This document shows, in pieces, positions 145 to 206 of a stretch of DNA of 7,669 bases (position 1 is the stretch's first letter; each line of letters begins with the position of its first letter). Below the pieces are notes generated by a model. That model worked only from the letters and a program-made list of their open reading frames with translations, searched no databases and was not told the origin of the DNA. The translations under genes and the position numbers were made by a program. This stretch comes from Escherichia coli (GTDB lineage Bacteria > Pseudomonadota > Gammaproteobacteria > Enterobacterales > Enterobacteriaceae): assembly GCF_003334335.1 (NCBI RefSeq), contig NZ_QOWQ01000071.1. The stretch is one strand, 5' to 3'.

Positions 145-149
145 TTCAC

Positions 150-180
150 TATGCCCGATAAACAAGCGTTATCGGGCATA
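150..180. terminator. Perfect inverted repeat (12-bp stem, 7-nt loop) between the two convergent genes; possible bidirectional terminator or RNA-stabilising hairpin
   Basis: TATGCCCGATAA (150-161), loop ACAAGCG (162-168), TTATCGGGCATA (169-180); the arms are exact reverse complements. No U/T tract follows on either strand, so it is not a canonical intrinsic terminator. Confidence 0.3.
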
Positions 181-206
181 ATACAACTTAATGTATGAAG
201 AGAATA

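Follow-up and report, generated by a model that had tools for sequence, protein, structure and literature searches.

The 62-nt spacer between the convergent genes agaR and garD in this Escherichia coli DNA (7,669 nt, the whole stretch analysed, called the window below) carries a perfect 12-bp stem-loop just past the agaR stop codon. The stem-loop has two siblings built on the same 11-bp stem, located downstream of glpC and between the tsr and lgoT genes. By analogy with these siblings, we consider the chance somewhat better than even that the agaR-garD stem-loop is a gene-end hairpin of the terminator type, lacking the U tract, which would give a leaky RNA 3′ end or act as an exonuclease block. 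The features of the junction were as follows.

1–144, + strand: 3′ end of agaR (last 47 codons and TGA), from translation, the annotation of an identical segment, homologue lengths and comparison
145–206: convergent spacer of 62 nt, the prlF-yhaV-less allele of the agaR-garD junction
150–161: left arm of the hairpin, TATGCCCGATAA, from a repeat finder and the sequence
162–168: loop of the hairpin, ACAAGCG here and different in other alleles (SCU-116 type, ACGTGTG)
169–180: right arm of the hairpin, TTATCGGGCATA, from a repeat finder and the sequence
207–1374, − strand: pseudogene of garD (galactarate dehydratase), from the annotation of a 100%-identical record and its broken open reading frames

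A preliminary description, made from the letters of the window, had reported a perfect 12-bp stem-loop without a U tract in a 62-bp convergent gap, and every element of this was recovered. The agaR frame, translated from the + strand, stops at the TGA at 142–144, and the garD stop codon (TCA) lies at 207–209 on the minus strand. Between these two convergent stops there is a single hairpin, the only structured element of the gap. The repeat finder placed it in the window at 150–180 as the perfect inverted repeat TATGCCCGATAA-N7-TTATCGGGCATA, with 12-nt arms that are 100% complementary and a stem that starts 5 nt past the agaR stop. The spacer with its edges reads ...GCTG TGA TTCAC TATGCCCGATAA ACAAGCG TTATCGGGCATA ATACAACTTAATGTATGAAGAGAATA TCA GGCC... 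When the whole 7669-nt window was shuffled 300 times with its dinucleotides preserved, perfect inverted repeats of at least 12 bp with a loop of 3–12 nt arose in two of the shuffles (analytic expectation, 0.0046), so the repeat exceeds chance. RNA folding of both strands, which the preliminary description had proposed, gave a stable helix for the 41-nt hairpin core, −17.4 kcal/mol on the + strand and −20.2 kcal/mol on the − strand (z around −6; 0 of 200 shuffles as stable).

One component of an intrinsic terminator, a stable G+C-containing stem-loop, is thus present. The other component, a U-rich tract, was absent in both directions: the + strand continues with AUACAACUUA and the − strand with GUGAAUCACA. 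Both strands lack a T run beyond the stem: positions 181–190 are ATACAACTTA, and the minus strand goes on with GTGAATCACA. The combination of a 5′ A tract and a 3′ T tract that marks a bidirectional terminator was likewise absent, the hairpin being flanked by GATTCAC and ATACAAC. A terminator scan of window positions 1–1000 returned no site, no promoter-like site was found in the gap, and an Rfam covariance-model scan of positions 1–1200 with E up to 10 returned no match at the hairpin. Because neither strand has a U tract, efficient intrinsic termination by this hairpin is not expected.

The preliminary description had placed prlF-yhaV, a toxin-antitoxin (TA) pair, between garD and agaR in K-12, and had suggested that, if so, the pair is missing here with the hairpin at that junction. 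Comparison of E. coli genomes confirmed this order, which most complete E. coli genomes have, and the alignment with the K-12-type interval that it proposed showed the pair missing and the hairpin spacer in its place. The window arrangement was contiguous in 504 of the 5426 complete E. coli genomes. In the other E. coli genomes sampled the window matched in two pieces with yhaV and prlF between them, for example in the order agaR, a 54-nt gap, yhaV, prlF, a 148-nt gap, garD (L002). When complete E. coli genomes were searched with a 39-nt hairpin probe, 506 records matched at ≥95% and about 131 at 87%, so that a TA-less spacer of the hairpin type is found in about 635 of the 5426 genomes (about 12%), including Nissle 1917 and an avian pathogenic (APEC) O2:K1:H4 strain. 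The 62-nt spacer as a whole was confined to these approximately 635 TA-less genomes.

A second TA-less allele, the SCU-116 type, has intact kbaZ, agaR, garD and garP, a 51-nt gap, and the hairpin TATGCCCGATA-AACGTGTGC-TATCGGGCATA. A candidate third TA-less allele (P0013/L148), sought through the C-terminal extension of AgaR described below, proved identical to the SCU-116 type. Alignment of TA-bearing with TA-less alleles held as far as GGTCGGGGA(G), at agaR codon 269, on the left side and resumed at the garD stop, TCAGG(T/C)CACCGG, on the right side; everything between was replaced. Outside the hairpin, the 62-nt spacer had no match to anything in TA-bearing genomes. That E. coli strains differ in carrying prlF-yhaV has been published: yhaV is found in some strains and not in others, HM605 being one without it (PMC7232551). 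The present comparison gives this presence/absence polymorphism exact end points, with agaR codon 270 to the garD stop replaced, and finds a hairpin-only spacer between agaR and garD in about 12% of complete E. coli genomes, Nissle 1917 among them.

The replacement altered the AgaR protein as well. AgaR is 274 amino acids long in both TA-less alleles (window 1–144; L004 820–1644) and 269 in K-12, Citrobacter, Salmonella and most of the homologues sampled from other genera. The extension reads LASSL, or HASSL after an E-to-D change. The difference in length implies that the TA-less spacer overwrote the usual stop position, and thus that the junction polymorphism carries with it an altered AgaR C-terminus.

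Is the hairpin then an attachment or target site of the prlF-yhaV cassette, or the scar of its excision? Its position coincides exactly with that of the cassette in other strains, and the hairpin between agaR and yhaV in K-12 shares its outer 7 bp (ATGCCCG/CGGGCAT) and its 6-nt distance from the TGA. In a metagenomic lineage that is distant at the genus level (L134 and L135), the order is garD-prlF-yhaV-agaR and the cassette lies between direct copies of a terminator hairpin. Against such an origin, the likeness to the K-12 spacer stops at the 7-mer ATGCCCG, and 20% of shuffles score as well, so homology of the window spacer with the K-12 agaR-yhaV spacer is unproven and we rejected it as a finding. 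The terminator that flanks the cassette in L134 and K-12 (AAAACATGGCC...) is a different sequence, absent from the window spacer, and the rest of the spacer matches nothing in TA-bearing genomes. We therefore regard a TA-cassette site or scar as very improbable. The preliminary description had listed a scar among three possible functions; this one was not upheld, since no similarity to the cassette flanks could be demonstrated in the spacer, on either side, and the outgroups lack the pair too.

In Citrobacter and in Salmonella, agaR adjoins garD with no prlF-yhaV between them, so TA-less adjacency is the state in these neighbouring genera. The Citrobacter gap (59 nt) holds a canonical bidirectional terminator, AAAAGGCCGGATGG-N10-CCATCCGGCCTTTTTT; the Salmonella gap (103 nt) holds a small hairpin and a REP, GCCGGATAgcggttacgccTTATCCGGC. 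Some hairpin lies beside the agaR stop in every version of the junction (window type, K-12, Citrobacter and Salmonella), and the junction hairpins of E. coli, Citrobacter and Salmonella are not homologous.

Several features of the TA cassette were recorded along the way. The terminator hairpins that flank it in L134 have the same orientation (about 2020–2050 and 2975–3003; also in L135) and form a direct repeat, AAAACATGGCC-CTAA-GGCCATGT(C/T)TT, which could be a product of insertion or a route by which recombination could excise the cassette. In K-12-type E. coli this terminator remains on the garD side only (L002, about 2583–2610). A prlF-yhaV homologue (YhaV 66% identical) was found at 2166–2962 in L137 and L138, Salmonella contigs of about 90 kb with phage-type genes (Phage_pRha, ANT). 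The palindrome GGTAATGCAAATGCATTA upstream of prlF is the same in L137/L138 and in E. coli.

The genes on both sides of the hairpin bear on whether it still works in this genome. The left gene is labelled agaR in a 100%-identical E. coli chromosome record. The aga/kba operon, which AgaR represses, is deleted here: two kbaY-like aldolase fragments are left (L001 2733–3071) upstream of the window agaR, followed by malX and a malY-like gene. With its operon gone, agaR is an orphan regulator in this genome, and agaR itself carries a frameshift in the L003, L140 and Nissle-type genomes. The garD remnant is frameshifted, has an internal stop and lacks its N-terminus, and the 100%-identical chromosome annotates it as a 'UxaA family hydrolase' pseudogene. 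This truncation and frameshift, which the preliminary description had not noted, probably leave the genome with only one of the pair of convergent transcripts.

The garD pseudogene was 96% identical to K-12 garD at 207–500 and 87% identical at 500–934, so its divergence climbs sharply as the truncation point is approached. The notion that garD exists as three deeply diverged haplotypes was rejected, because SCU-116 and K-12 garD are 97.7% identical and only the window pseudogene is divergent. A sugar-utilisation cassette (2569–6946) stands in place of the 5′ part of garD and the gar genes. In a related genome (L006) an IS3-family transposase lies much nearer the garD remnant than the one listed below. 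The right part of the window contains the following.

2341–2567: ilvN-like fragment, annotated
2569–3354, − strand: DeoR-type repressor, in the sugar-utilisation cassette
3657–4577: ribokinase, in the sugar-utilisation cassette
4605–5921: FucP-like permease, in the sugar-utilisation cassette
5933–6946: 337-aa open reading frame without an NCBIfam match
about 7322–7600, + strand: start of an IS3-family transposase orfA

Such decay raises the possibility of a relic without function: a copied terminator hairpin whose U tract was lost or never existed, lying in the spacer of an old rearrangement and kept only because the lineages are young. Consistent with this are the missing tract on both strands, the decay of both neighbours in the lineage (the garD pseudogene, the deleted aga operon, the frameshifts of agaR in L003, L140 and Nissle-type genomes), and the AgaR length of 274 against 269 amino acids, the overwritten stop pointing to a derived rearrangement. 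Identity of the hairpin in 504 genomes says little about constraint because the carriers are close relatives. The comparison of the two TA-less alleles weighs against a relic. Between the window type and the SCU-116 type, 23 of 24 stem bases are kept, 3 of 7 loop bases differ, and the right flank is much changed and rich in insertions and deletions, with an 11-nt difference in length. A stem kept amid such change in loop and flank supports constraint on the stem, as judged from the two sequences. The SCU-116-type hairpin, moreover, sits between fully intact genes (kbaZ, agaR, garD and garP), and a sibling used without a tract, in the tsr sense, still gives a significant 3′ terminus. On this evidence we hold a functionless relic to be unlikely.

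For the gene-end RNA hairpin that we prefer, the main evidence comes from the siblings. The group was defined by the stem ATGCCCG(A/G)TAA / TTA(T/C)CGGGCAT, a loop of 5–9 nt, and a stop codon no more than about 12 nt away; the window hairpin has all of these (ATGCCCGRTAA / TTAYCGGGCAT). The tsr-lgoT hairpin of K-12, aATGCCCGATAA-gcaaaatg-TTATCGGGCATa, lies between convergent genes and was present in about 4500 of the 5426 E. coli genomes by BLAST. Its stem was identical in the sampled E. coli alleles (K-12, two variants, and L124, an E. coli-labelled species representative), in E. albertii and in two Citrobacter species, among relatives found with a pattern that required the stem, to which stem variants are invisible. 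The 8-nt loops were unrelated: gccataag, gtgatgac, gcacggtg and gcgcgggg in E. albertii, L124 and the two Citrobacter species. To judge from these alignments, the retention of 18–22 identical bases around scrambled loops is not neutral. The glpC hairpin of K-12, ATGCCCGGTAA-gcatgtgg-TTACCGGGCAT, followed by TTTTG, begins 12 nt after the glpC stop and was present in 5421 E. coli genomes. A common alternative allele reads AUGCCCGGUAAGC-acauu-GCUUAUCGGGCAU in the glpC sense. Stem pair 8 is G-C or G·U in the glpC copy and A-U in the other copies, a change that, read from the sequences, is a compensatory path.

In ten sequences of the group, 8 of 12 stem pairs were invariant, and pair 8 was A-U in seven, G-C in two and G·U in one; the G·U form is a pair only in RNA of the glpC sense. 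Alignment A1 of the group had 18 invariant columns and 94% of its cells paired. The formal covariation signal was weak (19 of 500 shuffles reached the score) because it rests on one stem pair. In the same alignment the second loop base (C, column 17) and the last loop base (G, column 23) were nearly invariant and the rest of the loop was free; this C and G might pair with each other, adding to the stem above a bulge of one base. The three hairpins, which are unlinked, also share part of the loop (ATAA-G/A-CAA...). Chance sharing of an 11-bp arm by two independent hairpins in a single genome is very improbable, from which we infer that the three are most likely relatives by descent. No name for the agaR-garD hairpin or its siblings was found in the searchable literature; they are instances of a familiar kind of gene-end hairpin.

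Mapped RNA 3′ ends of K-12 show what the siblings do. In one study of RNA 3′ termini (TRS, PMC10687069), which scores each terminus by Rbar, a value that is high when local read-through is low, the primary glpC terminus lies at 2356752–2356761 with its peak at 2356756 and an Rbar of 0.98. The stem ends at 2356752, 4 nt before this peak, and is followed by UUUU at 2356753–56. On the + strand of tsr the study reports a terminus at 4593353–4593363 (peak 4593357, Rbar 0.52) that was significant in all three libraries, and a second table of the study gives a 'Primary' tsr terminus at 4593359. These termini are 4–6 nt past the stem end at 4593353, where the sequence continues AAGGAG with no U tract. 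A further + strand terminus with an Rbar of 0.94 was reported about 200 nt beyond, at 4593555 (PMC10687069), which implies that much transcription reads through the tsr hairpin. On the lgoT-sense strand the stem is followed by UUUUC or UUUUU. With a U tract on that strand only, the tsr-lgoT hairpin is a proper terminator for lgoT and a leaky, tract-less former of 3′ ends for tsr. The tsr 3′ end has no entry in the supplements of Adams 2021 (PMC7815308), TERMITe (PMC12207403) and SMRT-Cappable-seq (PMC6131387). At the agaR-yhaV hairpin of K-12 the study maps the primary yhaV terminus (3277854/5, Rbar 0.92), and K-12 garD has a terminator of its own (3276903, Rbar 0.975) (PMC10687069). The contrast between 0.98 for glpC, with a tract, and 0.52 for tsr, without one, is a contrast within the hairpin group, and its copies with and without a tract form a natural series for the contribution of the U tract to 3′-end formation in vivo.

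For the agaR-garD copy itself, 3′-end formation is most likely, by analogy with these siblings. The agaR transcript, from the + strand, would fold into a stable helix of 12 bp shortly after its stop codon, by a few nucleotides, and garD transcripts from the − strand would form the same helix in genomes with an intact garD. A partial, leaky 3′ end a few nucleotides past the stem might then arise, as in the tsr-sense use of the sibling, by either of two routes: RNA polymerase may pause and terminate weakly at the helix, or the helix may block the 3′-to-5′ exonucleases that trim read-through transcripts. With either route, or both, less antisense transcription would run on into the opposing gene. 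What an exonuclease barrier calls for is seen in part here, a stable stem-loop just past a stop codon, and in part at the siblings, where 3′ ends map at +4 to +6 nt. Among the three possibilities listed in the preliminary description, an RNase-protective or other RNA 3′ hairpin is accordingly the one favored, with 3′ termini mapped at both K-12 siblings.

Some observations count against this reading or limit its reach. The tract-less 3′ end in the tsr sense is only about half-efficient. The conservation of the tsr-lgoT hairpin may be owed to lgoT alone, since it is a proper terminator on that strand. Selection on the agaR-garD copy may have lapsed, garD being dead here and agaR frameshifted in related genomes. 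In this genome, with a garD pseudogene and the aga operon deleted, the hairpin is probably close to a relic and doing little.

Recurrence of the stem raises another alternative, a low-copy palindrome, REP-like or miniature, that spreads between gene ends by movement or by copy-and-paste and has whatever function it has at the DNA level. The 11-bp stem and part of the loop are shared by three unlinked sites, which is very unlikely by chance; the arm GCCCGATAA is one base off the REP arm GCCGGATAA, with a matching change in the other arm; and a REP lies beside a hairpin in L112, as one does, for comparison, at the Salmonella junction. Several findings speak against mobility. BLAST (E≤10) found at most 3–4 places per genome, and the window-type hairpin occurred once per carrier genome, at agaR-garD, among all complete E. 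coli genomes, in counts that copies with diverged stems would escape. There is no GTAG/CTAC foot next to the stem and no clustering of the BIME type, and neither the tsr-lgoT nor the glpC site bears a repeat annotation in the K-12 record. The copies are fixed at their loci across E. coli, and in the case of lgoT across genera, so there is no sign of recent movement. A mobile palindrome is in our judgment quite improbable. The preliminary description had held that recurrence at many genomic sites would make the hairpin a generic REP-like repeat. The stem does recur, at two other sites, which goes some way toward that condition; with only three sites in all, rather than hundreds of copies, a perfect stem and no REP features, the generic repeat did not stand.

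The 9-bp arm by itself was too common to serve as a marker. The pattern GCCCGATAA-N4-12-TTATCGGGC matched at least 120 loci in the whole collection, against roughly 40 expected by chance, and among the matches listed most were unrelated terminators (A tract, stem, T tract) from many phyla. Such terminator stems (L007–L126) occurred in Flavobacteria, Haemophilus, Clostridia, Colwellia and others. Because it recurs in so many phyla, the arm alone defines no family and the pattern matches cannot be used as a copy count.

A perfect palindrome whose sequence, beyond its pairing, is conserved at most stem positions among three sites might also be a double-stranded DNA site for a dimeric regulator, for example of agaR or garD. 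The site lies, though, at the 3′ ends of both genes, in a gap without a promoter-like site, and the three loci have no obvious common regulon as judged from gene functions. The spacing of the half-sites varies with loops of 5, 7, 8 and 9 nt, which a dimeric DNA binder would not tolerate, and the pairing of the G·U member is limited to glpC-sense RNA. A DNA-binding site is hardly to be expected on these grounds; this was the remaining function offered in the preliminary description, and the 5–9 nt loops and the G·U variant disfavor it. A broader proposal makes the three hairpins one sequence-specific module, with the stem conserved beyond pairing as a site for an RNA- or DNA-binding factor or as a copy-and-paste terminator cassette, the tract-less copy marking an old haplotype that coexists with the prlF-yhaV one; to us this seems improbable.

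Returning to the gene-end RNA hairpin, its significance beyond annotation is small, and it leaves current understanding unchallenged. Among the closest known systems is the lgoT/tsr hairpin (K-12 NC_000913.3 4593324–4593353), which has the identical 11-bp stem ATGCCCGATAA/TTATCGGGCAT, lies between convergent genes near their stops, and in the tsr sense is tract-less with a 3′ terminus 4–6 nt past the stem. It departs from the window hairpin in its loop of 8 nt, in a U tract (UUUUC/UUUUU) on the lgoT-sense strand, which makes it a one-way intrinsic terminator, and in its wide distribution (about 4500 of 5426 E. coli genomes, E. albertii and Citrobacter). The glpC hairpin of the glpABC operon (K-12 2356723–2356752) has the same stem save for pair 8 and is also near a stop codon, but it is followed by TTTTG, is an efficient terminator (Rbar 0.98), and lies between tandem rather than convergent genes.

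The yhaV hairpin of K-12 (AUGCCCGC-N21-GCGGGCAU and CCUUUCU) resembles the window hairpin in adjoining the agaR stop, in the outer 7 bp and in the 6-nt spacing from the TGA; it carries a mapped 3′ end, the primary yhaV terminus. It differs in its interior and its longer loop, and it serves the TA operon. Like REP/BIME elements, the window hairpin is an extragenic palindrome, of about 31 nt in a 3′ UTR, with an arm one base away from the REP arm (GCCGGATAA). The presumed roles of REP elements are those of a partial terminator and an mRNA stabiliser (bioRxiv 10.64898/2026.03.23.713779), roles that the window hairpin may, by analogy, share. The window hairpin has no GTAG foot, a perfect rather than a mismatched stem, three copies rather than hundreds, and no repeat annotation. 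Finally, the bidirectional terminator of Citrobacter is, like the window hairpin, a single hairpin that separates convergent agaR and garD in a gap of some 60 nt; it has the A tract and the T tract for both directions, whereas the window hairpin has neither.
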